Source of the DNA: Psilocybe cubensis | Taxonomy: Eukaryota | Length of the DNA: 47,784 nucleotides | Assembly (NCBI GenBank): GCA_017499595.2 | Contig: JAFIQS020000016.1 | Coordinates: 124,001 to 171,784, forward strand | Reading direction: 5' to 3' | Shown here: piece after piece, positions 3,753 through 46,300 of the stretch | Numbering within the stretch: position 1 is the first letter of the stretch | Layout: the number at the start of each line of letters is the position of its first letter | The notes under the pieces: model-generated | Told to the model about the DNA's origin: nothing | Seen by the model: only the letters and a program-made list of their open reading frames with translations | Database searches by the model: none | Made by a program: the position numbers and the translations under genes

Positions 3753-3988
3753 GGAGGCCGGCCTCCAGTGGCTGGCGTGTACGAGTGGAGGCTGGCCTCC
3801 ACTCACGCGTACAACGCGCGTACGAATCGAGGCCGGCCTCAGGTGGCCTCGACACGTTTATTTTTAGACGGAGGCCGGCCTCCAGTGCCTGTCAAAAATT
3901 ATTTTTAGACGGAGGCCGGCCTCCAGTGACCTCCATCAATTTGGAGGCCGGCCTCCAGTGGCCTCCATCAATTTGGAGGCCGGCCTCC
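3753..3988. repeat. Array of seven GGAGGCCGGCCTCC-type palindromes
   Basis: Copies at about 3753, 3787 (variant), 3829 (12-bp core), 3870, 3911, 3943 and 3975. Confidence 0.85.
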
Positions 3989-4159: not shown

Positions 4160-4815
4160 TAGGAAGTAAGGTAGGCGTGTGAACTTCCGAACGGCATGTG
4201 ATTGTGAAGGGCCGGATCTAATTTAGTACATGGGAAAAGTTACTTAGTACCTCGGGAAAAGTTCCTTAGTACCGTGGAAACATTTTTGATGGACCGGATC
4301 ATGAACTGTCCAATTAAGATTCACAACAATCAATCAATTGATTGTTAGGTAAGGACCCAGGTAAGCTATTTATACTCTAGACATGTGAATATTCCCATGT
4401 CGCGGTTACTCGGAGCCACGTAACCAGAGTACTCTATATCCATGTGATTCACATCACAGTCAATAACCCACGATGTCAAAGAACAAAAGTGTTGGATCCA
4501 CTTTTGACAGGTTACCATGTGCCACATTGACCCGTGACACTCTGTTCATCAGAGACCTGTCTAACTTGACAATAAACATTGACAGATTTGTGATAGTCGG
4601 TAAGATACATGACAGCTGCGCAGCATCACTTCACGCGCTGTCATCGGATGTCTAGAACATTCCTTCTAAGAATAGCCACTGAAGAGTCTATAAAGACGAA
4701 AGGGCTGGTTGTTGGGATCCCCCAACAGCCCTCTGGCTTCTTTCCATTTTAACTCCCAGTTTAAACTAGTCGCTCGCACCTCGCTTCGCTCGGTGCTCGC
4801 TCCCCCCCTAAACCC
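4160..4815 (+). repeat. Pseudo-LTR copy 1
   Basis: Matches 8573-9228 by eye. Confidence 0.92.
4674..4738 (+). ncRNA. Type I hammerhead ribozyme, copy 1
   Basis: Stem I AGCCA/TGGCT; core CTGAAGA (4679-4685); stem II GTCT-ATAA-AGAC; GAAA (4698-4701); stem III GGGCTG/CAGCCC; CUC triplet with predicted cleavage after C4733. Confidence 0.9.
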
Positions 4816-4844
4816 AACGACTTTGCTATCACCCATCAGCCACT

Positions 4845-6003
4845 ATGTCATCCCAATATTCTGCTGCTTTCTCTCGTGCCATGTCCCCCACCCTGGACGC
4901 ACTCACCCAGGCCGTCGTCAACAACACCGTCTTCGGCGTCAACGATGAAGCAGGCCGCCATAACGCTCTGATCGACGAGCTGGCCACTGTGGTCATCAAA
5001 AAAATAGCTGAGTGCCGCTCCGTTGACCAAGTCATAGACTGCGTCTTTTTTGACTATCGTGCTGCCCTTAGGGAGTTTCTCCACAACCTCGCATCGTGGT
5101 GCGATAAGAGGGAAACAGTCAAGGCTAGCCTCGAGCGCCTTGAATCTGCCGTTAGCGCAGGCAACACGCCCAATCGCCTTAAGGTGAAGGCACCCGAGTT
5201 CCAACTTACGAAGGAATTCGCGGATGCCGGGTCAGCGGAGGCTCTTCGAGTCTCCACTACGTTCTCTTCCGCTCGTGATGCCTTCCAAAAGGCAATTAAC
5301 GACGGCGCCGTTCAGGCGAAAAAGGACGAGCTGGCTTTTTGGGATGATAAATGCGCGCTCAACTCTTGCTACGAAGCTGCTGCCCTCATCGTTAAGGCAA
5401 CTTACGATGATCGCAAATCCAGCTACAAGCTCCCTGTTTTCTCTACAGACAACAAGGGAGTTCGACGTATAGCAGAGTGGGTAGTGTCTCCGCAAAAGAA
5501 AGCCGAATGCAGTGCGCTGCAAACTATACTGCCGGCGATCTTTTCTCATATCAAACAGATTGTCAACATGCGCCACCGCGCCTTGGCAATTAAGATTGAG
5601 AAAAAGCGGACGACTGCGGCAACAGCCGATGTCGAGATGGCCGATGCGACCAAACCAGGTCCATCGATTCAATCCCTTATTGATAAGGGCTTGAATGCAC
5701 GTCTCAAAAAGCTCAACCTTGGATCTGTGGGCAAGAAGGCAAGTTTTCGTAACCCTTCACCCATAATTCTGGACACTAATTATTACTCTAATTACCCAGA
5801 CTTTGTCTGGCCAGAATTCGTCCAAGGCTCCTCAACCTCAGGCCAGGAAAGCTGGCCCTTCGAAACCCAAGTCGTCGTCGACGCCTTCGCAGAGGAAGCC
5901 TCAAACCAAGGCTTCCAACAAGGTCGACAACAAGAAGAAAGGGAAGGGGAGAGCTCCCGTCAAGAACAACGATCCAAAGGGAAAGGGAAAGGCAAGAGCC
6001 TAG
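4845..6003 (+). CDS. Predicted spliced ORF1 (365 aa, helical body with Lys-rich tail); exons 4845-5738 and 5800-6003
   Basis: AAG|GCAAGT donor at 5739, CTAAT branch candidates and CCCAG acceptor at 5799 (61 nt). Splicing joins codon 298 in phase with the basic frame ending KKKGKGRAPVKNNDPKGKGKARA*. Confidence 0.6.
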
Positions 6004-8378
6004 ACGCGCGGTCTACTGTAGCATCATTTACGTCGGTGAGACCCGCCTTCCCCAACTCTATTCCTGACGATATACTCACCATGACTAAAACAGACGCAGT
6101 TTCTTTTGTACACCTCAATACCCCGATTTCATTCTTATTGGCTGGCCAGTATAGATCTAGTGTACACTGTAGTCCTGGTGTTTCGGTCCCTGTTGATGTA
6201 GCAAATGATTTATCTCTTGGACTCAATTATATGTTTTTTACACTGCCTTCTAAAAGTCTGATCATGCAAGCATGGAATGATTTTCAACGAAGAATAAGAT
6301 GGCGTATCTATTTTTTGTTTAAAGAAGGCATGAATAAACCTTTCGATCCAGACTATGGAGTAAGCTCTAAAAAGAAAGAGAAACCTCCAATGTTACCGCA
6401 ATTTATGGAACTTGGCCTTTCAATGGGACGTCGGTACGTTATTAAAACGATCGCAAGTATCCCGGAAGAAGCCCTTAAAGAGATGCGAAAGCACGCGTTC
6501 TCTCCTAAAAGGGACAAGATCCAAAAGTTTCTTATCGATAACAACTATGTTATTACGATGACAGATAAGAATCTTGGCCTCGCGGTGTCTGAACGCGACT
6601 GGATATTAAGGAATGAGCTCAATCTTCTTGAAGATGAACGCAACTACGAAGAGTTAGAATTCGAAGTTGCGCAAGAAGTTATGAAGAGCAAAATGATTCA
6701 GATGCAAACTCTCGCACGTACCGTCGAAGATGAACATCTGTTTCTATTTGAACTTGGGTTGTCTCGATTCTTTCTATCGAATGTACCGGAAGACGGATCA
6801 TCGTTCAAGTATCCTCAATTTCATGGTATACCTAAAATCCACAAGAAACCTACTGGATTTAGGCCCATAATTCCGTGTCACTCTGTAGTTTTTAATCCTG
6901 CAGCCAAGTTTGTATCAAAAGAGCTTAAGCCGATTATTAAATCGACTCCTTCAATCATTCACGGAACGAAGGATCTCTTTACGAGATTAAGCCAATTGCG
7001 TATAGACCCCAAACGACAATGGTATTTTGTCACCGGGGATGTAGTCGCTTTCTATCCCAATATTCCGTTGGACTTGTGCATCGAAATCGTTTGTAGTATG
7101 TACGAGGAATGGTTACTCAACGCTTCGGAAGAAAACACTGCATTAGCCCATATTAATCCAAATTCGTTAGAGAATAACTTGGTTAAATTGGGCATCTTTA
7201 AACGTGCTATCGAGATTGGCAATACGCAATTGATAACACAACATGGGTCTAGATATTTTAGACAAAAAAATGGCCTCGCAATGGGCGTCGCGGATTCTCC
7301 GGACCTTGCTAACCTCTTTGGAGCCCATTTTGAAATAAAGTCAAAAATCTTAGACCACCCAAATGTGGCCTTCTATGGAAGGTACATCGACGATTGTTTC
7401 GCAATTGTTTACGCCGAGTCCGAAGCACTTGCACTTAATCTTATTAAAGAAACAATAAAGTTCGATGGTTGTGTTATCGAATGGGCTGTTTCCTTGTCGG
7501 GATGTCAATTTCTCGATGCTTTCATATTCAAGGAGTCTGGAAAACTTCATTGGAAGCCATTTGTCAAGACAGGAAACAACCGAGAACGAGTTCCATGGGT
7601 ATCACATCATCCTTTGGACGTCAAACGTGGCGTCTACATTGGAGAGTTATCCAGGTTAGCCGTGCTATGTAGTACCAAGGAAATCTACATTGGAGCAATT
7701 AGAGACCTTAACGCTCTCTATTTGATGCGCGGTTATCCCGAAAACCTAGTCATGTCTTGGTGTAAGAAGAATATACAAGAACGTTGGAAAAAGCGATTCG
7801 CTTTACGAGTCGCAGAGCACGACGAATCCATTCTTGTACTTAAAACCAGGTTTGATCAGGTATGGAATTGGTTTTCAGCTGCTGAACTTGGAAAAACTGT
7901 TACCAAGTACTGGTCGGCATGGTATGAACATGCCGAGAAAGGTCTGTATAGTGCAGACTCGTCCAGACCCCTTATCAAACCAGATCCAAATTACGTTCAC
8001 GACCTCGATGATGTTCGCCCGGAGCTGTTCACACAGATCCTCGTGGACGGAGAAACTGAGTTCGTACCGGATTTGAGGAAGATAGGACTACTCGGAAGTC
8101 GTTGGATAGTATCGCGAAAACGCAATACTAATCTTTTCGACCTTGCAAATGTGTGGAAGAAAACAGTCTTTCGTAAACTGGATGAAGACATTGCCGAAAA
8201 AGGTGGTGTTGTTCCCGAAACTCAAAACGTTAATGAAACTTATCATTCTGCTCTAGTTGAAGCTGCTGAGCAGATAAGTATCGAAAGTGATAACGAGATA
8301 ATACTTCATAGACGTTCAATCTCACAAGAGAGGGAACATCCAGAATTCGGCAGAATATCCAAATCTTACAACCGATGA
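4845..8378 (+). CDS. Penelope-like ORF1-reverse transcriptase polyprotein (1177 aa unspliced frame), no endonuclease
   Basis: RT motifs TDKNLG, FHGIPKIHKKPTGFRPII, GDVVAFYPNI, QKNGLAMG, RYIDD and FLD, then the PLE C-terminal extension HPLDVKRGVYIGELSRL. No GIY-YIG motif is visible. Confidence 0.92.
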   Translation: MSSQYSAAFSRAMSPTLDALTQAVVNNTVFGVNDEAGRHNALIDELATVVIKKIAECRSVDQVIDCVFFDYRAALREFLHNLASWCDKRETVKASLERLESAVSAGNTPNRLKVKAPEFQLTKEFADAGSAEALRVSTTFSSARDAFQKAINDGAVQAKKDELAFWDDKCALNSCYEAAALIVKATYDDRKSSYKLPVFSTDNKGVRRIAEWVVSPQKKAECSALQTILPAIFSHIKQIVNMRHRALAIKIEKKRTTAATADVEMADATKPGPSIQSLIDKGLNARLKKLNLGSVGKKASFRNPSPIILDTNYYSNYPDFVWPEFVQGSSTSGQESWPFETQVVVDAFAEEASNQGFQQGRQQEEREGESSRQEQRSKGKGKGKSLDARSTVASFTSVRPAFPNSIPDDILTMTKTDAVSFVHLNTPISFLLAGQYRSSVHCSPGVSVPVDVANDLSLGLNYMFFTLPSKSLIMQAWNDFQRRIRWRIYFLFKEGMNKPFDPDYGVSSKKKEKPPMLPQFMELGLSMGRRYVIKTIASIPEEALKEMRKHAFSPKRDKIQKFLIDNNYVITMTDKNLGLAVSERDWILRNELNLLEDERNYEELEFEVAQEVMKSKMIQMQTLARTVEDEHLFLFELGLSRFFLSNVPEDGSSFKYPQFHGIPKIHKKPTGFRPIIPCHSVVFNPAAKFVSKELKPIIKSTPSIIHGTKDLFTRLSQLRIDPKRQWYFVTGDVVAFYPNIPLDLCIEIVCSMYEEWLLNASEENTALAHINPNSLENNLVKLGIFKRAIEIGNTQLITQHGSRYFRQKNGLAMGVADSPDLANLFGAHFEIKSKILDHPNVAFYGRYIDDCFAIVYAESEALALNLIKETIKFDGCVIEWAVSLSGCQFLDAFIFKESGKLHWKPFVKTGNNRERVPWVSHHPLDVKRGVYIGELSRLAVLCSTKEIYIGAIRDLNALYLMRGYPENLVMSWCKKNIQERWKKRFALRVAEHDESILVLKTRFDQVWNWFSAAELGKTVTKYWSAWYEHAEKGLYSADSSRPLIKPDPNYVHDLDDVRPELFTQILVDGETEFVPDLRKIGLLGSRWIVSRKRNTNLFDLANVWKKTVFRKLDEDIAEKGGVVPETQNVNETYHSALVEAAEQISIESDNEIILHRRSISQEREHPEFGRISKSYNR

Positions 8379-8490
8379 AAAGAATACTAGCGCTTAAGGC
8401 GTAAAGCATTAGAAAAAAACCCTAACCGTAAGTATTCCTTGCTACAAAGTAACAAACATCTACTTACAAGCAACACATTGGATTAAATAG

Positions 8491-8572
8491 CTAAACCTAA
8501 ACCTAAACCCTAAACCCTAAACCCTAAGCCCTAACCTAACCCCAACCCTAAGCTAACTAAGTCTAACCTTAG
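8491..8572 (+). repeat. Degenerate telomere-like C-strand repeats inside the element 3' UTR
   Basis: ctaaacctaaacctaaaccctaaaccctaaaccctaagccctaacctaaccccaaccctaag... Confidence 0.85.
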
Positions 8573-9228
8573 TAGGAAGTAAGGTAGGCGTGTGAACTTC
8601 CGAACGGCATGTGATTGTGAAGGGCCGGATCTAATTTAGTACATGGGAAAAGTTACTTAGTACCTCGGGAAAAGTTCCTTAGTACCGTGGAAACATTTTT
8701 GATGGACCGGATCATGAACTGTCCAATTAAGATTCACAACAATCAATCAATTGATTGTTAGGTAAGGACCCAGGTAAGCTATTTATACTCTAGACATGTG
8801 AATATTCCCATGTCGCGGTTACTCGGAGCCACGTAACCAGAGTACTCTATATCCATGTGATTCACATCACAGTCAATAACCCACGATGTCAAAGAACAAA
8901 AGTGTTGGATCCACTTTTGACAGGTTACCATGTGCCACATTGACCCGTGACACTCTGTTCATCAGAGACCTGTCTAACTTGACAATAAACATTGACAGAT
9001 TTGTGATAGTCGGTAAGATACATGACAGCTGCGCAGCATCACTTCACGCGCTGTCATCGGATGTCTAGAACATTCCTTCTAAGAATAGCCACTGAAGAGT
9101 CTATAAAGACGAAAGGGCTGGTTGTTGGGATCCCCCAACAGCCCTCTGGCTTCTTTCCATTTTAACTCCCAGTTTAAACTAGTCGCTCGCACCTCGCTTC
9201 GCTCGGTGCTCGCTCCCCCCCTAAACCC
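8573..9228 (+). repeat. Pseudo-LTR copy 2
   Basis: Direct repeat of 4160-4815. Confidence 0.92.
9087..9151 (+). ncRNA. Type I hammerhead ribozyme, copy 2
   Basis: Same sequence as copy 1; predicted cleavage after C9146. Confidence 0.9.
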
Positions 9229-9254
9229 TAAACCCTAAACCCTAACCCTAAACC
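9219..9254 (+). repeat. Telomeric repeats (CCCTAAA/CCCTAA)n, junction 1
   Basis: ccctaaaccctaaaccctaaaccctaaccctaaacc. Confidence 0.9.
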
Positions 9255-9760
9255 GTCCAATTAAGATTCACAACAATCAATCATTTGATTGTTAGGTAAG
9301 GACCCAGGTAAGCTATTTATACTCTAGACATGTGAATATTCCCATGTCGCGGTTACTCGGAGCCACGTAACCAGAGTACTCTATATCCATGTGATTCACA
9401 TCACAGTCAATAACCCACGATGTCAAAGAACAAAAGTGTTGGATCCACTTTTGACAGGTTACCATGTGCCACATCGACCCGTGACACTCTGTTCATCAGA
9501 AACCTGTCTAACTTGACAATAAACATTGACAGATTTGTGATAGTCGGTAAGATACATGACAGCTGCGCAGCATCACTTCACGCGCTGTCATCGGATGTTC
9601 CAGAACATTCCTTCTAAGAATAGCCACTGAAGAGTCTATAAAGACGAAAGGGCTGGCTGCTGATATCAATCAACAGCCCTCTGGCTTCTTTCCATTTTAA
9701 CTCCCAGTTTAAACTAGTCGCTCGCACCTCGCTTCGCTCAGTGCTCGCTCCCCCCTAAAC
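9255..9760 (+). mobile_element. 5'-truncated pseudo-LTR mini-copy 3 (variant)
   Basis: Starts at gtccaattaag (equivalent to 4308) and ends at the CCCCCTAAAC motif. It has several substitutions relative to copies 1 and 2. Confidence 0.88.
9622..9686 (+). ncRNA. Type I hammerhead ribozyme, copy 3 (variant stem III extension)
   Basis: Core and stems I and II are conserved; the apical stem III has compensatory changes. Predicted cleavage after C9681. Confidence 0.88.
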
Positions 9761-9774
9761 CCTAACCCTAAACC
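9753..9774 (+). repeat. Telomeric repeats, junction 2
   Basis: ccctaaaccctaaccctaaacc. Confidence 0.85.
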
Positions 9775-10280
9775 GTCCAATTAAGATTCACAACAATCAA
9801 TCAATTGATTGTTAGGTAAGGACCCAGGTAAGCTATTTATACTCTAGACATGTGAATATTCCCATGTCGCGGTGACTCGGAGCCACGTAACCAGAGTACT
9901 CTATATCCATGTGATTCACGTCACAGTCAATAACCCACGATGTCAAAGAACAAAAGTGTTGGATCCACTTTTGACAGGTTACCATGTGCCACATCGACCC
10001 GTGACACTCTGTTCATCAGAGACCTGTCTAACTTGACAATAAACATTGACAGATTTGTGATAGTCGGTAAGATACATGACAGCTGCGCAGCATCACTTCA
10101 CGCGCTGTCATCGGATGTCTAGAACATTCCTTCTAAGAATAGCCACTGAAGAGTCTATAAAGACGAAAGGGCTGGTTGTTGGGATCCCCCAACAGCCCTC
10201 TGGCCTTCTTTCATTTTAACTCACAGTTTAAATAGTCGCTCGCACCTCGCTTCGCTCGGTGCTCGCTCCCCCCCTAAACC
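9775..10280 (+). mobile_element. 5'-truncated pseudo-LTR mini-copy 4
   Basis: Same start point (gtccaattaag) as copy 3. Confidence 0.88.
10141..10205 (+). ncRNA. Type I hammerhead ribozyme, copy 4
   Basis: GCCA-CTGAAGA-GTCT ATAA AGAC-GAAA-GGGCTG...CAGCCC-TC-TGGC; predicted cleavage after C10200. Confidence 0.88.
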
Positions 10281-10303
10281 CCTAAACCCTAAACCCTAAA
10301 ACC
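10272..10303 (+). repeat. Telomeric repeats, junction 3 (to copia)
   Basis: ccctaaacccctaaaccctaaaccctaaaacc directly abutting copia gag sequence. Confidence 0.88.
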
Positions 10304-10333
10304 ATCGAATGTCATCGACTCGAAGCGGAAACA

Positions 10334-13300
10334 GTGACTCGCAAATATCCTCCTGGCTCGGAGTATTCCAACTTTTCAAATAGCGACAATCGTCCTATTG
10401 CCAAACATCCGCACAATCCCAACGGGGTCAGGTGCACTAACTGCAAAGGTCGTACTCACGATCGTGATCACTGCTATCGGCCTGGGGGTGGCATGGAAGG
10501 TCAGGGACCAAGGGGACCAAATGCGGCAAATGCAACCACTGCTGCAAAGAAACCCACCGAGACTGCAAACGTTGCAGTCGTTGCTGAAAACGACTTCTTA
10601 GAGAGTGGGGAAATATCGTGCGCTCTGATTGAAGAGGTCGATGAGGTGGGTGTCACCGCAGTTGCAGGGGACATCTCGACGTGCGCTACTCTGCTCGACT
10701 CGGGAGCAACCTCTCACTTGATCAAGTCGCGATCACTATTCCATACGTATTCCGAGGCCGATGCACGAGATGTCACCACTGCAAATCTTGGTACTCTTCA
10801 CACTCGAGGAGGCGGAACCTGCTACATTAATGTGAATCACAATGGCCGCTCAATCCGTGTCAAACTCAATAACTGCCTGCACGCACCTAATGCCGCCATG
10901 AACTTGCTCTCTGTGAGTCGGCTCAACATCGCCGGGATTGCCTGCAACTTCGTACCAGGATGTGGTGTTGTCCTATCGAAAAATGGTGTGGAACTAGCGT
11001 CCGGACGGCTGAGAAACGGTCTCTTTGCCATTGAGAACGCGGCATTCATTCCACGACCCAGAGAATCCTCAGTCAGAGCCATGTTTGTTAGGGTTCCAGA
11101 GTCAATGCACTTACATCATCTTCGTCTTGGCCATCCTGGCCACCAAGCCACCCGATCGATCGTCAAACACGTTCTCAACGCCTCGATCAAGGACGATCAT
11201 GTTCGATGCGAACCATGCGTCATCGCCAAGCACACCGCAACCCCACACCCACAAAAGTCTCTTGGTCAACGTACCTATCAACCTCTCGAACTCATTCTTG
11301 CCGACACCTGTGGACCTTTCCCTGTTCAGACGCCGCATCATAAGGAACATTTCGTTGCTTTCAGATGTGCAGCAATGAAGGTGACCAACGTGCAGTTAAC
11401 TGCCGACAAGACGGCCGAAACGATGCTGGAGGCATTCAAAATTCTTCAACACCGATGGGAGAATCGCACCGGCTATAAAATCAAAAGGTTCAGATGCGAT
11501 GGAGGCTCGGAGTGGAAAGGGGTGTTTGCAGAGTACTTACTGGCTCAGGGCATTGAACAGGAAGTCACTCCGAGGTATGAACACTGGATGAACGGAGAGG
11601 CTGAGCGGTACATGAGAACTATTCAAGGTCGCATGTTGGCAATGATGACCACTGCACAGCTTCCTCTCACGTACTGGGGTGAGGCCGCTCTAACCGCTGC
11701 TTACCTATTGAATGTTACCACGGTTGACGAAAACAACATCACCCCATTCCAATCCATGTACGGTCGTCCTCCCAACCTTGCCCATCTTCGCGTTTGGGGA
11801 TGTCGTGCCTTCGTGCATGTTCCTGAAGAATGACAATCCAAACTCGGCCCAAAATCCGTGGAATGCCTCTTCATGGGGTATCCTCCTGGCGGGAAAGGTT
11901 ACCGCTTTCGACATCTTGATTCAGGACTTTTCTTTAACTCTTCCAATGCCATTTTTGATGAAAACATGCCTTATACTCCCGCTTTGACTTCTTCTTCTAC
12001 TCCTGTTGACTATTCTTCCTTACCTCTGCTTAATTCTCATTCTGTTGATTCTGATTTTCATGATTCTACTGATTCTGCTGTTACTGTTACTTTGCCTGTC
12101 TCTTCCTCTTCTATTTCTTCACGCTCTATTTCTTCTTCACCGTCGCCGCCTCCGGGCGACTTAGATGCTCCTGAATTACTTTCTTCTGATCTTGGACAAT
12201 CTCTTGTGAATCCTTCTGTAGAAATTACCCCCGAAACCCCAAATCTTCCCCAATCGCCTTTCATTCCATCAACACCTGCTCCAACTCGGATTCAACTTCC
12301 ACCCCGGTCTTCATCGCGTGACAAACGGTCGTCCAGTCGTGGAGAACTTTATGAGAAGTTGAGGGAGGCTGAACGAGAGGCGCGGGAAGTCAGGATATTG
12401 AAATTGGCGACGACGGCGGCGGCGAAGGCGGCGGCGAGGGATGCAGCGGCAGGGACGAGTGTGGGGGAGGCGGCTAGTGCTGCGGACACCGAGCAAGGGG
12501 GTGAAGACGACAATCCTTTTGTATCACTGTGCTCGGTAGGGATGCTTGAAGAGCATGAAAAGGGACTTTCGGAGGCCTCAAATTCTTCTGTCTCGTTAGA
12601 CGTCGAGGACTACCTCGCTCGCAACAAGGACTTTCTCTTCGAAACGACACTGCTATCCGTTCGAAGCGATCTTCGGAGGAATCCTCAATCACCAGAATAT
12701 GACATGAAGGTCCCACCAGCTACGTACGCAGAGGCAATGAAGAGACCTGATGCTGCCGAATGGAAGAGAGTGATGGATAAGGAGTTAGAGATGTTGAAGG
12801 GGATGGGTGTTTATGTTGATGAAGTCCTTCCTAACGGAGTGCATGCCATAGGATGCAGATGGGTGATGGAGTTCAAGATTCCTGACGATGGCGGTCCACC
12901 AATCTACAAGGCACGGCTCGTGGCACAGGGATTCTCTCAGCGACAATTCATCGACTACAACGCAACGTTTGCCCCAGTCTCTAAATCCGTCAGCGTGAGG
13001 GCCATTATCGTACACTCAGCACTCAATGGTTGGCACATCGAGTGCTTTGATGCAACGCGCGCTTTTCTCTGGGGAGACCTCTCCGAAGTCATTTACATGC
13101 GATGCCCACCAGGTTACCTCTCGCCGTTTCTCAATGGTGTGTGGAGATTAGTCAAATCCCTCTATGGTTTAAAGCAGGCTTCCCTTGTGTGGCATCAACT
13201 CATCTCTTCCGTCATCCTTAAGCTGGGCTTCGAGCGTTCGCAGTCGGATCATGCAGTATTTGTGTTTAAGAGAGAGTGGGGGGGAGGAATGGTGCACTGT

Positions 13301-14290
13301 GTGTTGTGCATCCACGTAGACGATGGACTGGCGGGTTCCAATTCCAAAGCATTCCTCGATCACACAAAAGGAGAGGTTGGAAAGGCTTTTGGAATCAAGG
13401 ATCTAGGTCCACTCAAATCTTTCCTAGGCGTTCAATACGAGCGAGACCTTGCAACACGCGAACTTTGGATTCATCAGGAGCAATATATCGACGCCATCCT
13501 TGATGAATATGGCATGGCCAGCTGCAGTCCCGTACTTACGCCAATCGATCCCATTCACGTCTTCGGTCGTGACGACGAAACATTTCCCGAGGTTCCAAAC
13601 ATCAAACTCACCTTTCAACGCCTCATTGGATCCCTTCTTTTCCTACAACGACACTCACGTCCCGACATCTCAATTGCCGTCCTGCTTCTTTCACAGCACG
13701 CCTCAAATCCTGAACCTCGTCACTATGCCACAGCTAAAAGAGTGCTTCGGTATCTTAAGGGTACACGAACACTACGTCTTCATTTTGGGGGACCCGGGTT
13801 CAATGTGCCTCTTCAAGGCTTTTCCGACGCTGACTGGGCCGGCAACAAGTTGTCGCGTGCCTCCATATCCGGATTCCTGTGGAGCATTGCAGGAGGCCCG
13901 TTAAGCTGGTCCTCGAAGACTCAAACGTGCATTGCCACTAGCTCCACAGAATCGGAGTACGTCGCGCTCACCAGGACTGTGCAGGAAGGCATATGGCTAC
14001 GGGCGTCTCTTCATCACCTCAATCTTCCATGTCCTGCACCACTCTTTGTATCCACGGACAACGAAGGCGCAAAATCGTTATGCGAGAACGATTCCTCTCA
14101 TTCCAAAGCCAAACATATTGATATTCGATACCATTTCATTCGCTCTCACGTCGAATCAAAACTTTTCGTCATCAAACACACGCCAGGTGTCACCAACCCT
14201 GCCGACATTCTCACAAAGCCGCTTCATCGTACCAAGTTCACGGAGGGTGTTCGTCGTCTTGGTTTAGTGCTGCGTCGAGGGGGTGTGTAG
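10334..14290 (+). pseudogene. Copia gag-pol polyprotein, 5'-truncated, with one in-frame stop at 11831-11833
   Basis: CTNCKGRTHDRDHC knuckle; LLDSGATSH protease; HLRLGH...CEPC; integrase DTCGP, RCDGGSEW, NGEAER; RT KARLVAQGFSQ, LYGLKQA, HVDD; RNase H SDADWAG, STESEY, KHIDIRYHFIR, ADILTKPL. The two ORFs share a frame across EE*QSKLGPKSVEC. Confidence 0.92.
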
Positions 14291-14671
14291 GAACTACTCC
14301 TTCCTTTCCAGTTTCTTTCCCCTATTCATATATACAGATCATTTTTCTTCCCTTTCAATCACCACCTTTCCAGCTTCATCTCTTCTATCTTAAGTCGTAG
14401 ATTCCTCTTCCATGCGACGCACCACTCAACCTTCTTTATTACTTCATGCACGTTCACTCGTCGTCCTCTCGTTTCTTCACATATAGCACCATCCTTTTTC
14501 CCCAGTACCTCAGCTTTCTTTCTTCTCGCTGAGGTACAGTTGTTCCACTTGTATTGTTACACAGATTGCTTACCTAGACTTGTAGTTCGAGCTCATAGTG
14601 TCTTAGGTGAAATATATAGCTTTCTTTCTTCTCGCTGAGTTCGAGCTCATAGTGTCTTAGTGTTCATCACA
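14286..14671 (+). repeat. Copia 3' LTR (TGT...ACA; right boundary inferred)
   Basis: Starts with TGTAGG two bases after the PPT. The candidate end is ...ATCACA at 14671, before intron-like host sequence. No second LTR is present to confirm the boundary. Confidence 0.65.
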
Positions 14672-14710
14672 AGTGTAATAATTGATAGAAAATCTTAACC
14701 TTTTTTGCAG

Positions 14711-15726
14711 TTGTAGGTCTACTCTTATACGCTGCAGCTCATTACCATTGAGACCAGCATTGATCGATTTATTTGTGGCCGTGACCGTAACCATTAAGTT
14801 GTAAGTACCATAAATCAGCGTGGTTAATAAAGTTATGTAAAAAGTAACAACTCAACAGGTGTTAAATTTTTGGATTTTGAAGTATGGACAGGCGTCATAG
14901 GGATTGTCATACCACAAGGTTCACCCCATTTTGACAATTCACGACCAAAATCGGGTCTGATCTCTGTTTAAAGTCATCCTACAGATTCGTTTATATGTGT
15001 TATTTAACCACAGCAAACGACTATTGGCATGTTTGATACCATTGTTCATAATATGCAGTGCTGCTTCAGCAACCATACTCAATACTGTTTTCTATCATGA
15101 GAAAAGAGGTCAGTCAAGTTAATTCTACTGTTTCAAATTCCCAATAACCACATTGACTTCTGAAGGACACCACATACAAGCATTTCAAACCCCATCCGGG
15201 ACGTTTTGTATCATTGACAACCTTCAATCTCACCTGTACACATTTTGGATCCCATTCATATTATTCGAGTGCCTGTTGTGCGCTTTGGCTGTTACCAATG
15301 GAATTCGGAACTACAAAGTATATGGAGCTCAATATACGCTCTATATGAGATTTCACAGTATAATGGTGCGCAACTCGGTGATTTATTTTATAATGTGAGT
15401 CATTTTAATGCTTGTTGATGTTTCCCATCCCTGTACTTATGAGATAAAACATTAGAATGGGTGGCACATATTTTGCTTGCATGATAGTATTCAGCATATC
15501 GCCGGTATGTCAACCCCACTTCAATCCTCTTTAGAAGCCAGAATCGATTTAATCATTATTGCAGAAATATTTCGACGCCCCTTTAGGCTTTGCAGTGGGG
15601 CTTTCTACAGCTTTATGCAACCGGTTGATACTCACAGGAGACGGTACGACTGACTCAAACGTTGAAGACACCACAAAGATTAGTGGCGTTCATGTCATCC
15701 CTATCTCCGACCTGGTTAGGAGATAG
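14711..15726 (+). pseudogene. 3' part of a multi-exon Agaricomycete multi-pass membrane protein gene (DUF6533-like family)
   Basis: Exons encode FEVWTGVIGIVIPQ, ILQIRLYVLFNHSKRLL, FWIPFILFECLLCALAV...MVRNSVIYFI and LGFAVGLSTALCNRLIL, ending at TAG 15724-15726. The 5' exons are missing upstream of the copia LTR. Confidence 0.6.
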
Positions 15727-33437: not shown

Positions 33438-36400
33438 TTAAACGGATACAACTCGAGATAAACTTACACAAACGGCAACTTCTTTCCCTTCCCATTGAAT
33501 GACGCACTTGGAAAAATGAGTATCAACCATAGACAAGGGAATGACCTCAATGAATTCCTCCAATTCGTTGCTCCATATTTTTGCTCTAAGATGTTGATAC
33601 CGCATATAGGGGTCGACCTTGATTTTTGCAGCGCGAAATGGTTTTGCGACAAGCCAGACATCGTCGTATAGAAGTGGCTTGCGGAACACTACAATGTTCT
33701 GGATGCAATACGGACCCGAGGGTGTCAGAATCTGACTGTTTCCTTCATGGATGGAAGAACTGGTGTATGAAATGCGGCCCGATGTATATCGATTTATTAA
33801 GTTTGCACGAATATGACGAGTAGATACCAGCTCAGCGCTGCCTTGGAAGAAGTTTGTAAATGCATTGAGAATGTTGTCGGGAAGTTCAACCTCCAGTCTG
33901 TCGCGATACAGGTTATTGTCAAGGATGATATCTGTATCTTGATCGTCGGTTCCAACCGCCTGCACCTTGTCCGTAGCGTAGTTTGCAAGGAAATTTTGAT
34001 TCTGAGGTTGGACGATGCTCTCGAACATTGAAGCGCACTTGGCAATGATAGGAGGGCAGGTGACCTTGGAAAACAGTGCCCTAAGATTGCTTCTTCTATG
34101 CCACGATTCTCCAATCGTAGCCTCATACTCGCCTATCACGTATTGTTAGGTAGAGCATGAGAGTTCTATGATTGACGGCTTACCAGGATGGTAATTAGTA
34201 TGTATTTGTTGCAGTGTCCCAATCATACGCTCGAAAGGGAACGTCCACCATCCATGAACAGGCCCATACGCCGCAAGGAATTCCCCAAGATGCATTGCCA
34301 TGTGGTGATTGGGATGGCAATTGTAGTCAGGAAATAAACGTGCCAAATTTTGACGGTACGTGAGCATATGCCCAAGATACAACCTTTCATGTGCAGCAGA
34401 GGTTGTCCGCGAAGTGATGACGGAGACGGCTTGGAATAACTCCATCGTCATGTTGAGGAGATCTCGACGTTCCTGGCTGGTAGTGTCTGTCCCATCTGAG
34501 GACCATAAGCGTATGAGAGTAATTGGGAGGTAAACAGATCCCGCCGCTCGCCATTGATCCGACTTTAACTTCGGTCCAGAGGAAGAGATTGATATAGGAA
34601 TAGTGGTTGCCCATGATGGTTGCACTATCGCGCTGATATCTCGTCGCAATTCGTCCATTTCCTGCGAGGTCAATATATATCCCTGCCTGCCGGCTAGTCC
34701 AGGAGAGGTGACGGAGGCCGGTAGTACTATTGGCTGTCTTGATCGCTAAGGAAAAAGCGAAGACAACGGTAAAATTGATCAGATTTATGATCTTGAGAAA
34801 AGGCGTGCAACGAACCCATTCCACTATTAGTTTTGCCAGCTCCGGCTTGTGATACCTCTTATCAGGATCACGGGAATCCCTCCCGTTCTCGGTAACAGTG
34901 CTCGGGATGCATCCAAGTCCTCTGCCAATGTAGATCAAGGAGACCAGGTGGCATCCCTTCCCAGCCCAATGTTTGGCATGTTTGTCAATCGTTGACTGTA
35001 GGTCCGATCCATGGAGAAAGGGCTCCTTAAGCCATCCTTCCAAGCGTCTGATGCTCGCTTTTTGCTGGACGTTGAAGCGATCGGGGTCCAAATTATTGGC
35101 ATCGTGAGCAAATAGACGGCCTGCATGGGCCGCAGATTCGGGAAGACCACCCATCGGAATCTTCTTGCATCCCAAGATATTTTGGAAGTGTTCCTTTACC
35201 AAACCCAAAAATAGGTTGTGCATTGGATCTATGGGAAGATGCTTGGTTGCGTCGTAGTACGGCAAACGAAGCAACTCCGAGGAGCGAAGTCCTGACAAGT
35301 CAAAGGATCTATCCGCCAGGTCCTGAGTTTGTGCATTGCGATATTTTTCCGAACGATTTCTACAGGACTCGTTGGTGCGCCATGTCCAGGTCGTATAGTC
35401 GATGTCGTTGTAAGTGTTCTTGGTTTTGCTGCAAGTACAAACTGAACAGAAGAATTCGTGACTATGTGAGGAAAAACCTCCGATTTTTCGAGCAGCAGGA
35501 AGATCGGCGATAATAGCAATGATAGCGCAATATATACATCGCCCAAGCTCGTAAAGAGCCGTCTTTGAAAAGCGAACTCCATCCCAGAATAGCAGTAGTG
35601 CGTCGACCAAAGGCCGCAAGTACGGGTTAAGGGCGTCCAGACTTGGCTCAGAAGGGCCAGGGATAATACCCGCTAGGAATATATTCTCAGGTTTGTAGCG
35701 GATATCGATAGGAAGATTGAGACATATCAGCGCGATGACGCCAATTGACACCTTTTTCCCAGCTGCCAAGTTCCTCAGAGGGTTGAAGAAATCGAATCCA
35801 AGAGAAAATAAGTATCTCCCGGAGTCCTTGTCGCCGATTTTGCCGAAATGCGTCCTTTTGTCGTGTCCTTTGAAGTTTTTGATGCATGTCGCCTGGAAAA
35901 TATCCTCGATATCGCCTTCGTTTTCTTGCATTCTATCCCATGCTGAATCCATCGTCTTCTCATAATTGCGGCGTGATAAGAGATTGGCCATCCAGTCATG
36001 GAAGCTGAAGGCAATGTATGGCTTTATTGGAGCGTTAATGGTGGCTTTCCCCAAACTGTTTTGGGCGAACTAGCAATTCTCTGCAGGACCTGACAGGGCC
36101 ACCTTGCTTGTGAGGCCTTCTACGTGCACGACACTTCTCTGGGTATATGGGAACGCCAGACTCCAATTTTGGCGGATAAATTTCGTGACACTTGGGGCAT
36201 GCTGCATAAACAGTGCTTTCCGCATCGATATTGAAGTAGCTCGTCGCCGTACGAACGTCGCGAGGGAATTTGGAGAGGAGAAGTTTGATTTTGTTCGGAA
36301 GGGTAGAGTGACTGGAAGAGCCCAAGGCACTGAAGGCTGTTTGTTCAATGATAAATTCGGAAATTTGAAAAATCCAATGGCAACCCCGTCGAGGAACGCC

Positions 36401-37188
36401 AAAAATAACTTGGACCGACACGACCATGAATGCAACCAACTGCAAGATGGTAGTTGCGGATTCCAGGATGGGCTTAAAATGTCGTCCTTTTCCATAAATA
36501 TTAGCCTAGAACCATATCGAATGAACTTTCGGTTACCTGAATTGTACATAGGAGTCGAGGCGGCAACTGTTTCGCGTTTCCCAAACTCCTTCCTATAGAG
36601 AGTTTCGATTCGCTTGAGATCATGCTGAAGTAGGCCGAGCTGCATTTGCGCATTATCGATGAGTGTTTTGATAGAAGGATCCTTTCGGATCGCCGAATGT
36701 TTGGCTGTGGCCAGCACTGTCGCAGATCTTTCGATGAATCCATATGCTGAGGAGCACTTATCCAGTCCTCCAAGTAATGCAGAGTCGGTGAGAGGTCCGG
36801 GATTAACTTGCAGAGCTTCTATCCCTCGTTTGTGTACGTCTGTTTCATCCAACAGGCCACCAAGCTGAGCTGCCACTCTCTTTTTCGTTTCGAAGCGAGA
36901 ATCGGAATCAGATAATTGGGATGTGAACGATGGAATTGATTGAGGGTCCGACAGTGATAGACGACTCAACGCTTCTTCAATGGCTTGATCATGCTTAGCG
37001 AGAGTTTTTGATTGTACATCCAAGGCGCGTTGCTGTTGCTTTAGGTCTTCTTCTTGTTGGCGTCGCTGATGTGCTCTGAAGTCCCTGGGTTTAAGTAATT
37101 TCCCCCTTCGATTAGTTCCTGGGTCCACATTATCGTAGCACCCGTGGACTTTACATATGCAGAGTCGATCGCCTATTGCAGGGGGCAT
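33438..37188 (-). CDS. CACTA/EnSpm (Tnp2/Transposase_21-type) transposase, intron-containing, with an apparent frameshift near 36050
   Basis: FSLGFDFFNP, LICLNLPIDIRYKPENIFLAGIIPGPSEP, LRPLVDALLLFWDGV, ADLPAARKIGGF...FCSVC, IDPMHNLFLG, KLKSDQWR, PNHHMAMH and YGPVHGWWTFPFERMIGTLQ are hallmark CACTA transposase motifs. Confidence 0.88.
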
Positions 37189-37739
37189 GATGGTATGATA
37201 ACGTCTAGTACCAAAATTGATGCTACTTTATAGTCACAGAGATCGGGAGTATTAAGAAATAGCTTCTCGGGAAGGAGAAGCACGCATGATATCCATTTCA
37301 CAATATATAAAAATCGTTAAGATCGGTATTCGACTGGAACCGCGTCCAGAATTTGGTTGAAAACTGGCAGTGCAGTAATCCTTCGGCTAATGTCCATGCG
37401 GCAATATGGGCAGCCCCCCTTCCATCCCTTCTTATTGTCCCATGCTTCAAGGCAGCTCGAACAAAAAAAGTGACCGCAAGTCAACCTGTTTTAGATATTA
37501 GTAATGAGCATTATCTTCGGTATTGCAATGATTCGCTGGAAAAACATACATTACCGGCATATCTATGTGGCAAGTGCATATTGGGCAAGTCGTATTTTGG
37601 ACGACGACATCGCATAACTTGCGAAGTGCTTCAACTTGACGCTGCAGCTCGGCTGACTCCTATGAAACATTCAGAGAGCACATAAAATATTTCGACATGA
37701 CTCACTGCATGCGATTTTTTCAAGTCAGATTGACATTTC

Positions 37740-43181: not shown

Positions 43182-43385
43182 GTCGGCGAAAAAGTATGGA
43201 GGTGGATGTGGCGGTAATTAGGGAGGAAAGTATGAGGCGCGAATACGGTTTGGCTGCTATCTTTTAGGTGAGTCCCTCTTTGTTTCCTTATTCCCGGTAT
43301 TCACAAAGAGTTTTTGAATAAAGAGCCCCCATCTGAGTGTACAAAAGGTGACCTCGGGAAGGCAGGCATCCTCAGTATCATACCC

Positions 43386-46300
43386 ATGTCGTCCACCCGA
43401 CGGGAAACGTTGCCCCTCAAGGAGAGGATCGTGGCCTTACTTACTCCTTCGGCAACTGGATCTTCCACTGATCAAGAACCCTCCTCAATGGACACATCAC
43501 CTGATTACCCGACGGAACGTCTAGAACAAGTAGAACAAGGAGGAGCTGGAGCTACTTTGTCCAACGCTACGCCTTCTAATGTAGCGGTTTCTTTTCCAAT
43601 TCCTCCACCCGGACCTGCCGCAGATGAACACGGTGCACGTACAGCCTCCATTGCTCCCTCTGTTTCTCAGCCCACCAATGGCGCTAGTTTGACCAATCAG
43701 GTTCCTGTAAATGCGGTTATTCTCTTACCACCCCGGCTTGCTGCAGATGACCAGGGAGCCCAAGGATCTTCAGTCCCAAATCGTGTTGCTCCCTCTGTTT
43801 CTCAGCCCAGCAATGGCGCTAGTTTGACCAATCAAGCTCCTGTAAATGCGGTTACTCTCTTACCACCCCGGCTTGCTGCAGATGACCAGGGAGCCCAAGG
43901 ATCTTCCGTCCCAGATCGTGTTGCTCCCTCTGTTTCTCAGCCCACCAACGGCGCTAGTTCGATCGATCAGGCGCCTTTCCGGTTTGCTACAGATGTTCGG
44001 GGTGCCCAAGGATCCTCCATTGCGAATAGTGTCTCTCGGCCATCCGCTGGACATATCCCACGGATTGGGTCTTCCGACGTGCTTTTTCCTGGACATTTCC
44101 GACAGAACGAGTCTTCCGCCAACACTAATCCTCCTCCGAACCCTGAAACGTCTATGGACATTGATCCTACACTACCTACGTCGTCAAATCCCAGTAGCAC
44201 CTCTACATTTCCACGGTTTTTTATACCCGTTTTGTCTGGAAATTTGTTCAATTTCACTAGAAGTGATCCGAACCAGTCTAACCAGTCTAAGGCGAAGAAA
44301 CGACGAGCTGCACCGGAAGACCATACCACCAAAGTCCAAGTCATCGAACAGAAAGACGTCGACATCGCAGAGCTGAGCAAGCAACAGGCACGTTACCCAA
44401 AATCTACTTTTCTTGTCATTTATGTATTCATTGCTTTTTTAGATCAAGCAGAGGGAAGAGGTGCTCAAGAAAATCATTGATGATGAACGAGCGGAAGTAT
44501 GTTAATTTATTTCCTATGTTGCAAGATTTGCGTATTTACCACCATCGTACAGCTAACTAAGTCGAAGAATGCCATCAAAAATGCTGAAAAGAAAGCAGAA
44601 AGGAGCAAAAAGGAGGTAGAGGCTGTACGTTCGCAGTATACCAAGCTGTCGAAGGCAATGCGGACGGAGAAGGAGAGCTCCAAAGGGCTTGAAGAAACTG
44701 TTAAAACTCAACAAGGCGACCTCTCGTCAGCGTTGATCAAACTTCGGCGTGCAGAGTCCTTATCTAAAGCATACGACCGCCAGCGTCTTGAAGCTCAGGA
44801 GCGTCACGAGAAAACGAATGCCGATCTCGAAGCTGCGGTTGCTTCGCGAGGTCAACAACTCTTCGCACAAATCTCAGATTTAGAAAACGACATCGCTCGT
44901 CTGCAGCAAGAGAAATCCAGCGAAGTCAGTACGTTACAGCGGCAGCTCCAGCAAGCAAATTCGAGGATTGAAGATTTAAGTGCCTCACAAAATACAGCGG
45001 CCCTTGCACAGGAACAAATTAGCTCTCTTCAGCAACAGCTCCGGGACGCGAATTCGACAATTGAAAATCTCAACGCATCGCAACGTGCAGCAGCAACGTT
45101 ACAGCAGCAGCTCCAGCAAGCAAATTCGAGGATTGAAGATTTAAGTGCCTCACAAAATACGGCGGCCCTTGCACAGGAACAAATTAACTCTCTTCAGCAA
45201 CAGCTCCGGGACGCGAATTCGACAATTGAAAATCTCAACGCATCGCAACGTGCAGCAGCAACGTTACAGCAGCAGCTCCAGGCAGCAAATTCGAGGATTG
45301 AAAGTTTAAGTGCCTCACAAAATACGGCGGCCCTTGCACAGGAACAAATTAACTCTCTTCAGCAACAGCTCCGGGACGCGAATTCGACAATTGCAAATCT
45401 CAACACATCGCAAAGTGCAGCACACGCACAGGACCAAATCAATGCTCTCCAACAACAGCTAGAGCGCGCAAACACGACACGTGTGGAAGATCAACAAACT
45501 ATCACGGGCCTCAATGAACGGTTGCGTGTTGCGTCAAACGAGATAACCCGCCTTACAGCACAATTACAAAACCAGCGAGAGGAGTCGCAGAAACAGTATC
45601 ATGCGCTCGAACGCGATCTCAAGTCCCAAATGGATCTCCATCAACAAAAATCAGCGGACGCCGAGAACGCTCTGAAAGCAGAGCAAACTAACCGAATGGT
45701 TTGTCTGTCAATCTTTAATCATGGCATTGTTGCTGATACAGAGCACAGGCCGAGATGAATCAAATGAAGGCCACTTACGAGGATACGGTGGTAGGATTCT
45801 AGTTTAGCCTATGCCTCAACAAATCCGACTGATAAGGTATCATTATTAGTCCAGCCTGCGTCTCCAAGTTTCCAATCTGGCACAACAATGTCAGGCAAAT
45901 CAAGGTCGCTTGAACGAGCTGGAATCAAGCAATACCGAATTCGGTAACACGACAAGTGCGTTGGAGGACATATTAAAGAACGAACGAATTAAGAATGAAG
46001 TAAATCTGTTCCCCTCCTTGTCAATCTTCGATTCTGATCACACCTCCAAGGTTTTGCAGGCTCGCATTAATTCAGTTATGAAGAACAGAACTCACAATAC
46101 TGAGGATGATTATGAACCAACGGAAATTAGGAGGTTGGATGCCCGGCGGAGGCTGGTATGTTAAACAATCCATTCGTACGTAGTACCTAATAATTTACCT
46201 CGATGTCTTCTAGATTGGGATCAACAAGCGCAATGCCGGGTTTTCTATACATTCACGAGTACGCAATAATGTATGTGGTGATCTTGTTGATCCTAACGAG

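Follow-up and report, generated by a model that had tools for sequence, protein, structure and literature searches.

Reverse transcription of a spliced RNA erases its introns, so that retroelements are expected either to be intron-less or to replicate only from unspliced RNA. In many fungi, and in basidiomycetes above all, intron-less genes are poorly expressed and splicing signals are used in the surveillance of transposons. The identical LTRs of retroviruses are processed according to their position, as illustrated by the occlusion of the 5' poly(A) site and by the U3 upstream element of HIV-1, and the HTLV-1 LTR holds a splice donor and an intron. An extra internal copy of terminal sequence is found in the internal complementary region of DIRS1, an element that makes use of a tyrosine recombinase and a circular intermediate. 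New introns are reportedly born by tandem duplication of an exon piece that holds AGGT, a model attributed to Rogers. To our knowledge, neither an LTR intron nor a spliced duplicate has been described for hemivirus elements.

Half-tRNA priming defines the hemiviruses copia, Ty5, Osser and 1731 (PMC1181622) and has been treated again for Ty5 (bioRxiv 10.1101/2025.04.25.647736). The presence of an intron in the HTLV-1 LTR is documented (bioRxiv 10.1101/2023.01.28.526022), and spliced transcripts contained within the LTR were described for maize LTR retrotransposons in a preprint of May 2026 (bioRxiv 10.64898/2026.05.08.723830). A search of full texts outside subscription journals and repeat databases returned no account of an LTR intron that is accompanied by a spliced duplicate.

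The stretch of DNA that was analysed here (the window) comprises 47,784 nucleotides of Psilocybe cubensis (contig JAFIQS020000016.1, positions 124,001 to 171,784 of the forward strand). It contains a copia LTR retrotransposon, an element of a known kind, that appears to possess a conserved feature of replication not described before. The element is similar to hemivirus-type Pseudoviridae in its RVT_2 copia polyprotein and in the primer-binding site, GGTTATGG/AGCCC, which directly follows the 5' LTR in sequencing reads and in relatives. As in retroviral LTRs, the same DNA would act differently at the two ends of the RNA, since the RNA starts within the LTR and so includes U3 at its 3' end alone, but the regulated step would here be splicing, controlled by a hairpin that is bisected by the transcription start, and an intron-less duplicate for strand transfer would be added. 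The maize elements likewise have introns inside LTRs; these have a mean length of 1303 bp, which is long, and belong to non-coding transcripts of the LTR, and the available part of that preprint reports no spliced DNA duplicate, hairpin or link to strand transfer. As in DIRS1, an extra internal copy of terminal sequence would allow complete ends to be rebuilt in reverse transcription, whereas DIRS elements have no intron but do have a tyrosine recombinase and a circular intermediate.

The element and its LTR

The relevant features are listed below by position in the window; A and B denote the two putative exon segments on either side of the intron, and A2 and B2 their second copies.

10309-14290, + strand: Ty1/copia gag-pol frame, 5'-truncated, with one in-frame stop (11831-11833), starting directly after a telomere-like tract
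14277-14285, + strand: polypurine tract GAGGGGGTG, directly before the 3' LTR; GAGGGGG(TG) likewise precedes the 3' LTR in the relatives L001-L005
14286-14669, + strand: 3' LTR, 384 nt, with TG..CA ends, delimited by a depth step, loose read ends and a contig piece from run X5
14481-14486, + strand: TATA-like ATATAG, putative core promoter, about 30 nt before A begins
14506-14536, + strand: hairpin with arms GTACCTCAGC (14506-14515) and GCTGAGGTAC (14527-14536), recognised by folding energy and by covariation in relatives
14512-14533, + strand: exon A, copy 1; its first base is the putative transcription start
14534-14585, + strand: putative intron, 52 nt, with donor GTACAG, acceptor TAG and a branch-like CTTAC that lies 13 nt before the 3' end
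14586-14606, + strand: exon B, copy 1; its last two bases are AG, the next two GT
14607-14617, + strand: AT-rich spacer GTGAAATATAT, possible poly(A) signal and/or start of a second intron
14618-14660, + strand: intron-less copy A2+B2 with the exact A-B join; proposed acceptor (R) for minus-strand strong-stop DNA
14661-14669, + strand: LTR tail TGTTCATCA, U5-like, with CA end
14670-14674, strand not applicable: candidate target-site duplication CAAGT, of which only the 3' flank lies in the window, the element being 5'-truncated

The frame upstream of the LTR, which is open from 10286 to 14290 except for the one stop, encodes RVT_2 (Pfam, E 2.3e-51), preceded by gag_pre-integrs, Pol_BBD and SH3_retrovirus; no rve match was listed for it at E<=0.001, and a CCHC knuckle is present near the beginning of what remains of the frame. 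By this RVT_2-type polyprotein the element is a Ty1/copia LTR retrotransposon. The window lacks a 5' LTR, the frame being cut on its 5' side by a telomere-like repeat tract, and the copy in the window, truncated and with a stop codon, is dead.

Reads and contigs of four public runs were aligned to positions 13800-15299. The raw DNA read depth in run X12 is about 45-50 over pol, about 100-130 from 14286 to about 14650 and about 15 in the flank, and loose read ends occur before 14286 (27 reads, with mixed flanks) and behind 14669 (46 reads). From the depth step and the loose ends, the limits of the LTR were set at 14286-14669. The 46 reads that pass 14669 run into a primer-binding site (GGTTATGGGCCCCG...). 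A contig of 5362 nt from run X5 consists of the LTR (14285-14669, 0 differences), 4462 nt of further sequence and positions 13800-14314; it represents a full-length element of about 5.7 kb that has the whole arrangement in its 5' LTR. The element thus possesses two LTRs, a polypurine tract and a primer-binding site, the 5' LTR and the primer-binding site being supplied by the X5 contig and the X12 reads. The primer-binding site (GGTTATGGGCCCC), found in reads and relatives, presumably matches the anticodon stem-loop of initiator tRNA-Met; no tRNA gene was detected in the window or in the 17 loci that were scanned.

The full-length X5 copy lies elsewhere and has approximately single-copy depth (22 versus 21-26). 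At position 14670 an empty site exists, where 17 X12 reads and a 3341-nt X5 contig arrive from a different upstream sequence. Since the empty site is found in both X5 and X12, the insertion in the window is polymorphic and young.

Not every copy has the complete arrangement. In X12, 24 reads pass from 14606 straight to the LTR tail and the primer-binding site, without spacer and duplicate, compared with the 46 that leave at 14669. The preliminary description of this DNA had held that copies lacking the duplicate would speak against its interpretation; such a variant does exist, and we read it as a contraction product rather than as the normal form of the family.

Two further observations were made in these data. 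An 881-nt contig from X6 matches 14612-14660 with 2 differences and continues into unrelated sequence right after B2, without the 9-nt tail, and may be a truncated LTR or another junction. Among the copies of the family in X12 (13800-14700), C>T accounts for 13 and G>A for 8 of the 36 listed places of difference, which suggests cytosine deamination of methylated or repeated DNA.

A putative intron and its spliced duplicate

The arrangement of interest occupies the final 158 nt of the LTR. Read directly from the letters, it consists of A (14512-14533), a 52-nt segment GTACAG...TTGTAG (14534-14585), B (14586-14606), an 11-nt spacer and an exact A+B fusion (14618-14660). The repeat search gave two pairs that are 100% identical, 14512-14533 with 14618-14639 (22 nt) and 14584-14606 with 14638-14660 (23 nt), so that the positions and the perfect identity claimed in the preliminary description are confirmed both by direct reading and by the repeat search. 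Two bases (AG) can be assigned to either side of the A/B junction, which leaves three possible phases, GT..AG being one of them. In a sensitive self-BLAST with 14280-15500 as query and the whole window as target, the two 22-nt matches were the only ones (E 2.7e-5 for each) and the LTR had no second copy, and Rfam gave 0 matches for 14200-14800 at E<=1. By its ends, its length and its branch-like motif, the segment 14534-14585 qualifies as a putative spliceosomal (U2-type) intron.

Seen in the window alone, such a layout could have arisen as a one-off accident in this family, either by aberrant reverse transcription or by tandem duplication combined with a 52-nt deletion or insertion and a chance GT..AG; the 2-nt microhomology at the junction and the non-consensus donor GTACAG would agree with this. 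The relatives described below make such an accident scarcely credible, as the layout recurs in 22 further families whose A, B and intron are unrelated in sequence; GT..AG is present in every one, and 22 have a consensus donor.

Distribution among related elements

The survey covered 79 metagenome loci that encode relatives of the pol protein (30-64% identity). The exact 21-nt pattern of B had no match in metagenome contigs. The four closest loci with a 3' LTR on the contig (L001, L002, L004 and L005) have the same layout in different sequences: a pyrimidine-rich tract ending in CTC, an A of 30-34 nt, an intron of 56-60 nt and a B of 15-19 nt, after which come a spacer starting with GTA, fused A+B, a tail of about 10 nt and the same primer-binding site.

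A scan that was blind to the intron boundaries detected the layout in 16 loci and the window, with a GT..AG phase in each; the only hits without such a phase were satellite-like arrays. A second scan, in which GT..AG was imposed and two mismatches were tolerated, was run on both strands of the window and the 79 loci. Its 28 hits all fall on the pol strand, with no hit on the other. True LTRs account for 27 of them (26 in 22 of the 79 loci, and the window); the remaining one, at 3768 in the window, is false and stems from a GC-rich tandem repeat. Inspection by eye and by regular expression added L019, where the layout is present in both LTRs, one of which has a mutated donor. The window and the relatives with the layout together make up 23 sequence families. 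An arrangement of exon, intron, exon and spliced duplicate, for which a survey of related LTRs had been proposed, is thus present in 22 of 79 loci by scan, plus L019. It had also been proposed to look for it in both LTRs of full-length members: it is present in the LTR beside the primer-binding site of the X5 copy, and in L031 and L012 one element has it at both ends. AB-spacer-AB, with no intron, is found in L003 and L053. Of the remaining loci, 38 with LTR sequence show no such layout and 16 have no LTR sequence.

In a reverse transcriptase tree with a midpoint root, for which 59 of 80 rows were usable, 22 rows fall on one side of the root. Of these, 18 have intron and copy, 2 have just the duplicate and the other 2 lack LTR sequence; every row on this side that can be evaluated therefore has the duplicate. 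The other side holds 25 rows without the layout and 11 without LTR sequence, plus L060. The deepest fork of this tree has support 0, and the carriers of the layout have no support as one clade. The hit in L060 was set apart because it lies far upstream of the pol match and is not followed by a primer-binding site; a neighbouring element is its probable source. All relatives come from metagenome contigs, and the nearest protein cluster in the Atlas is a copia reverse transcriptase cluster that is commonest in Basidiomycota. A fungal host of the lineage is likely because of this cluster, the intron size and the style of the promoter. The layout is probably a conserved working part of a whole lineage of copia-type elements, presumably a fungal one.

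Some of the metagenome contigs have identical ends of exactly 55, 77, 99 or 123 nt (L010, L015, L023, L030, L037, L041, L042, L049, L066, L071 and L073). These are LTR-internal cycles collapsed by the assembler, neither circles nor RNAs. Two of them, L030 and L066, extend from near A1 to the spacer and were considered as RNA-derived contigs; this was rejected, since their overlaps are exactly 99 nt and those of the others 55, 77 or 123 nt, which are assembler word sizes.

Conservation of the intron and probable renewal of the spliced copy

The intron measures 48-60 nt across the 23 families and has GT..AG ends in all 23. A G at +5 is present in 22 of them, the window donor GTACAG being the sole exception, a T at +6 in 20, and a CTNAY motif at 8-40 nt from the 3' end in 21; it follows that the window deviates from the consensus donor GTRNGT.

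The exons diverge between families, with a median identity of A+B of 0.62 (range 0.44-0.98). Within each LTR, in contrast, copy 2 equals the spliced form of copy 1 at 1159 of 1175 nt in total, perfectly so in 17 of 27 LTRs, and exactly one spliced copy is present in all 27. Exon substitutions and length changes are mirrored in the duplicate, family after family. Because the exons have diverged between families while the copies agree within the LTR, the spliced copy would be renewed through RNA; concerted evolution of this kind across the exon join needs, on the pattern of these sequences, spliced RNA as a template again and again. The suggestion that the spliced copy in DNA stems from reverse transcription of spliced RNA thus finds support in the GT..AG ends of every family and in the exact exon joins. 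The preliminary description had left a choice between regeneration in every cycle and a very recent origin to explain the perfect identity, and the contrast between 0.62 and 1159/1175 favours the former and speaks against the latter. One old accident would not account for this contrast either.

A conserved hairpin over the putative 5' splice site

In the window, the 5' arm of the hairpin straddles the start of A, and the 3' arm comprises the last bases of A together with 3 nt from the beginning of the intron. The calculated folding energy is -17.2 kcal/mol (z -6.2), compared with -2.2 kcal/mol if the RNA is started at 14512 and -5.4 kcal/mol in the context of copy 2. The relatives behave similarly: their mean energies are -17.9 kcal/mol for the full hairpin, -5.4 kcal/mol from the start of A and -7.1 kcal/mol in the copy-2 context, and the best stem has a mean length of 9.4 bp compared with 5.7 in shuffled sequences.

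In an alignment of 22 sequences, a helix of 14 pairs has 75.5% of its cells paired, as compared to 33-42% in slid registers; the helix was drawn after the sequences had been seen, which gives it an advantage in the control with slid registers. Its covariation score of 0.315, versus 0.06-0.14 in slid registers, is attained by 0 of 500 shuffles. Ten of the 14 pairs vary on both sides, and 42 cells do so compared with 21.6 in shuffles. RNAalifold by itself gave 5 core pairs only, with a covariation term of -0.27. The covariation points to a structured RNA that would be kept by compensatory changes, and because U-G pairs occur on the pol strand, it would be the RNA rather than a DNA palindrome that is maintained. 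Since the 3' arm covers the 5' splice site and the 5' arm spans the likely start of the RNA, the hairpin could hide this site only in the 3' copy of the LTR.

Promoter signals and a candidate second intron

In all families the repeat begins, on its 5' side, at an initiator-like motif, TCAG/TCAT, that is preceded by a pyrimidine-rich tract. Strict TATA-like motifs start at -45 to -25 in 10 of 21 LTR representatives, the window not being one of these, and of the TATA-like motifs in the 200 nt upstream, 16 of 30 fall in the bin from -40 to -21. These signals suggest that transcription starts at the first base of A, from which it would follow that copy 2 begins exactly where the RNA begins.

A transcription start at A2 instead of A1 would make A2B2 an ordinary R and place the intron-bearing copy in U3, to be transcribed only within the 3' untranslated region. 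Such elements would have a simple R-U5 leader without any splicing, and the AT-rich spacer just upstream of A2 does contain TATA-like strings. These strings, however, lie 0-10 nt from A2, which is too close for a TATA box, whereas the TATA-like enrichment, the pyrimidine tract and the initiator-like motif are all located before A1. A start at A2 also offers no route by which A2B2 could track A1 and B1, and leaves the conserved intron and the hairpin at its 5' splice site without a reason to exist in U3. We therefore consider a start at A2 very unlikely, and continue with a start at the first base of A.

If transcription starts there, the leader would contain both copies, and we propose that a second intron, running from the GT behind B1 to the AG at the end of B2, removes the spacer together with A2 and B2. 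This is the weakest step of the model described below. The AG|GT sequence at the boundary between B1 and the spacer is present in all 27 LTRs. The total length of spacer, A and B is confined to 50-64 nt, with a variance of 15.4 versus 48.8 for the summed parts (permutation P 0.0003). The proposed removal fits with this intron-like constraint on length, with the invariant AG|GT and with the homogenisation of both A and B. On the other hand, a G at +5 is found in 0 of 23 families, and CTNAY occurs in 12 of 23, compared with 31% in shuffles. The spacers have an AT fraction of 0.74 versus 0.54 for A+B, and AATA is found in 20 of 24 spacers as opposed to 3 of 24 A+B segments. In tail-less families the G of the acceptor comes from the primer-binding site, and for that reason the second intron could not be spliced in the 3' LTR.

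The situation resembles the Rogers model: in 27 of 27 LTRs the last bases of the repeat unit are AG, with GT directly behind them, and the period of 50-64 nt is the size of an intron. Splicing of that type, with the first GT as donor and the second AG as acceptor, would leave one A-B only. It differs from the Rogers model in that splicing of the unit is putative here and that its donor lacks the +5 G in 23 of 23 families. A single long intron from the donor of A1 to an acceptor at the end of A2 was ruled out, since A has no terminal AG in 11 of 23 families.

Proposed replication cycle

The model that we prefer, and consider fairly probable, is that strong-stop cDNA made from a spliced leader lands on the intron-less copy, and that the intron is inherited together with U3. 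The segment would be the transcribed LTR end of a copia-type, hemivirus-like retrotransposon. Leader RNA would start within the 5' arm of the hairpin, which would prevent folding of the hairpin, leave the 5' splice site accessible and permit removal of the intron. The RNA of the 3' LTR would include the upstream U3 as well, allowing the hairpin to cover the 5' splice site, and the intron would be kept. Minus-strand strong-stop cDNA copied from the spliced leader would carry the A-B join, and could pair contiguously only with A2B2 of the 3' LTR. Synthesis would then continue through the spacer, B, the intron, A and U3. A new LTR would thus be composed of a copy of the 3' end upstream of the landing point, joined to the whole leader from the 5' end of the RNA to the primer-binding site, and every new LTR would regain the intron from the 3' end, just as it regains U3, together with a fresh A2B2 that is copied from the spliced exons. 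For this the leader would have to read A-B-tail, the spacer, A2 and B2 being lost as second intron; these would have to leave the leader because the copy number stays at two.

That the spliced duplicate may act as the R region for strand transfer was suggested in the preliminary description, and our preferred model arrives at the same role for A2B2, a role suggested by the boundary of copy 2 at the initiator-like motif and by the concerted evolution. The model also predicts by-products. If the intron at the 3' end is spliced, AB-spacer-AB would result, and if only the second unit is lost, or if the cDNA switches early from B2 to B1, an LTR with A-intron-B-tail would be formed. The variants in L003 and L053 and the one in X12, respectively, fit these predictions.

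A more conventional course of replication can be envisaged, in which unspliced RNA is the genome, R extends from A1 into A2B2 and spliced RNA serves for translation only. The intron-less copy would then have another role, for example in spacing, as a poly(A) site or in the structure of U5, and its identity to copy 1 would be maintained by frequent unequal strand transfers and by direct-repeat recombination in reverse transcription. Contraction products do exist, as illustrated by the X12 variant without duplicate, the second intron of the preferred model has weak support (+5 G in 0 of 23 families), and the hairpin would be useful as well, by keeping the 3' R unspliced so that it matches unspliced strong-stop cDNA. 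Unequal transfer, however, predicts a spread of copy number, whereas 27 of 27 LTRs have exactly one spliced copy. Furthermore, an LTR once reduced to a single copy would stay in that absorbing state, so that the duplicate should be lost over time, but it is retained by 23 families and by two more that have lost the intron only; and the precise exon join in copy 2 of every family needs a spliced RNA template at some rate even if the genome is unspliced. Replication from unspliced RNA is for these reasons rather unlikely in our view.

The preferred model, with landing of spliced-leader cDNA on A2B2, can be extended to a complete description of the group. It would be a large fungal copia-like lineage with an undescribed design for keeping introns, in which the 5' R is spliced from two promoter-proximal exons, the second intron formed by the duplicate is removed too, the 3' R is a DNA-encoded spliced copy, the hairpin bisected by the start makes splicing dependent on position, the intron is inherited in U3 and the copy is rewritten in each cycle. 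We put forward this description in its entirety as a tentative one, with slightly less than an even chance of being correct in all its parts.

If it is true, the conflict between splicing and retention of an intron has been resolved in these elements, since the leader is spliced and the intron is passed on nevertheless. It would also add to the textbook scheme of replication a new kind of R region, one that is made by splicing, and would provide a clean natural example of an RNA switch that depends on the transcription start. For annotators, the layout is a sequence signature of this lineage and of its transcription start.

Other features of the window

Four interstitial telomere-like tracts (CCCTAA/CCCTAAA) are located at about 8488-8551, 9220-9254, 9740-9774 and 10274-10308. 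Each terminates a unit of some 520-534 nt, and the truncation of the copia element coincides exactly with the last tract. A 659-nt block at 4160-4818 is repeated at 8573-9231. The region 8390-10310 looks like a healed chromosome break that was later buried under subtelomeric repeats. Between the copies of the 659-nt block there is an open frame (4812-8378, + strand, 1188 aa) that matches no Pfam family at E<=0.001 and that may be a subtelomeric gene or an element of unknown kind.

A DNA transposon remnant is present at 34390-37227 on the - strand, where open frames match Transposase_21 (tnp2, CACTA/En-Spm type) with E 1.1e-12. The frames 43272-44480 and 44487-45758 contain in-frame tandem repeats of 135 nt x2 (43651-43920) and 165 nt x3 (44931-45425), and the latter frame has weak coiled-coil-like Pfam matches below the cut-off. 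Finally, five copies of a palindromic GC-rich unit of 22 nt (GAGGCCGGCCTCC...) lie at 3754-3965 within an island of 62% GC; this repeat is the source of the false hit in the intron scan.
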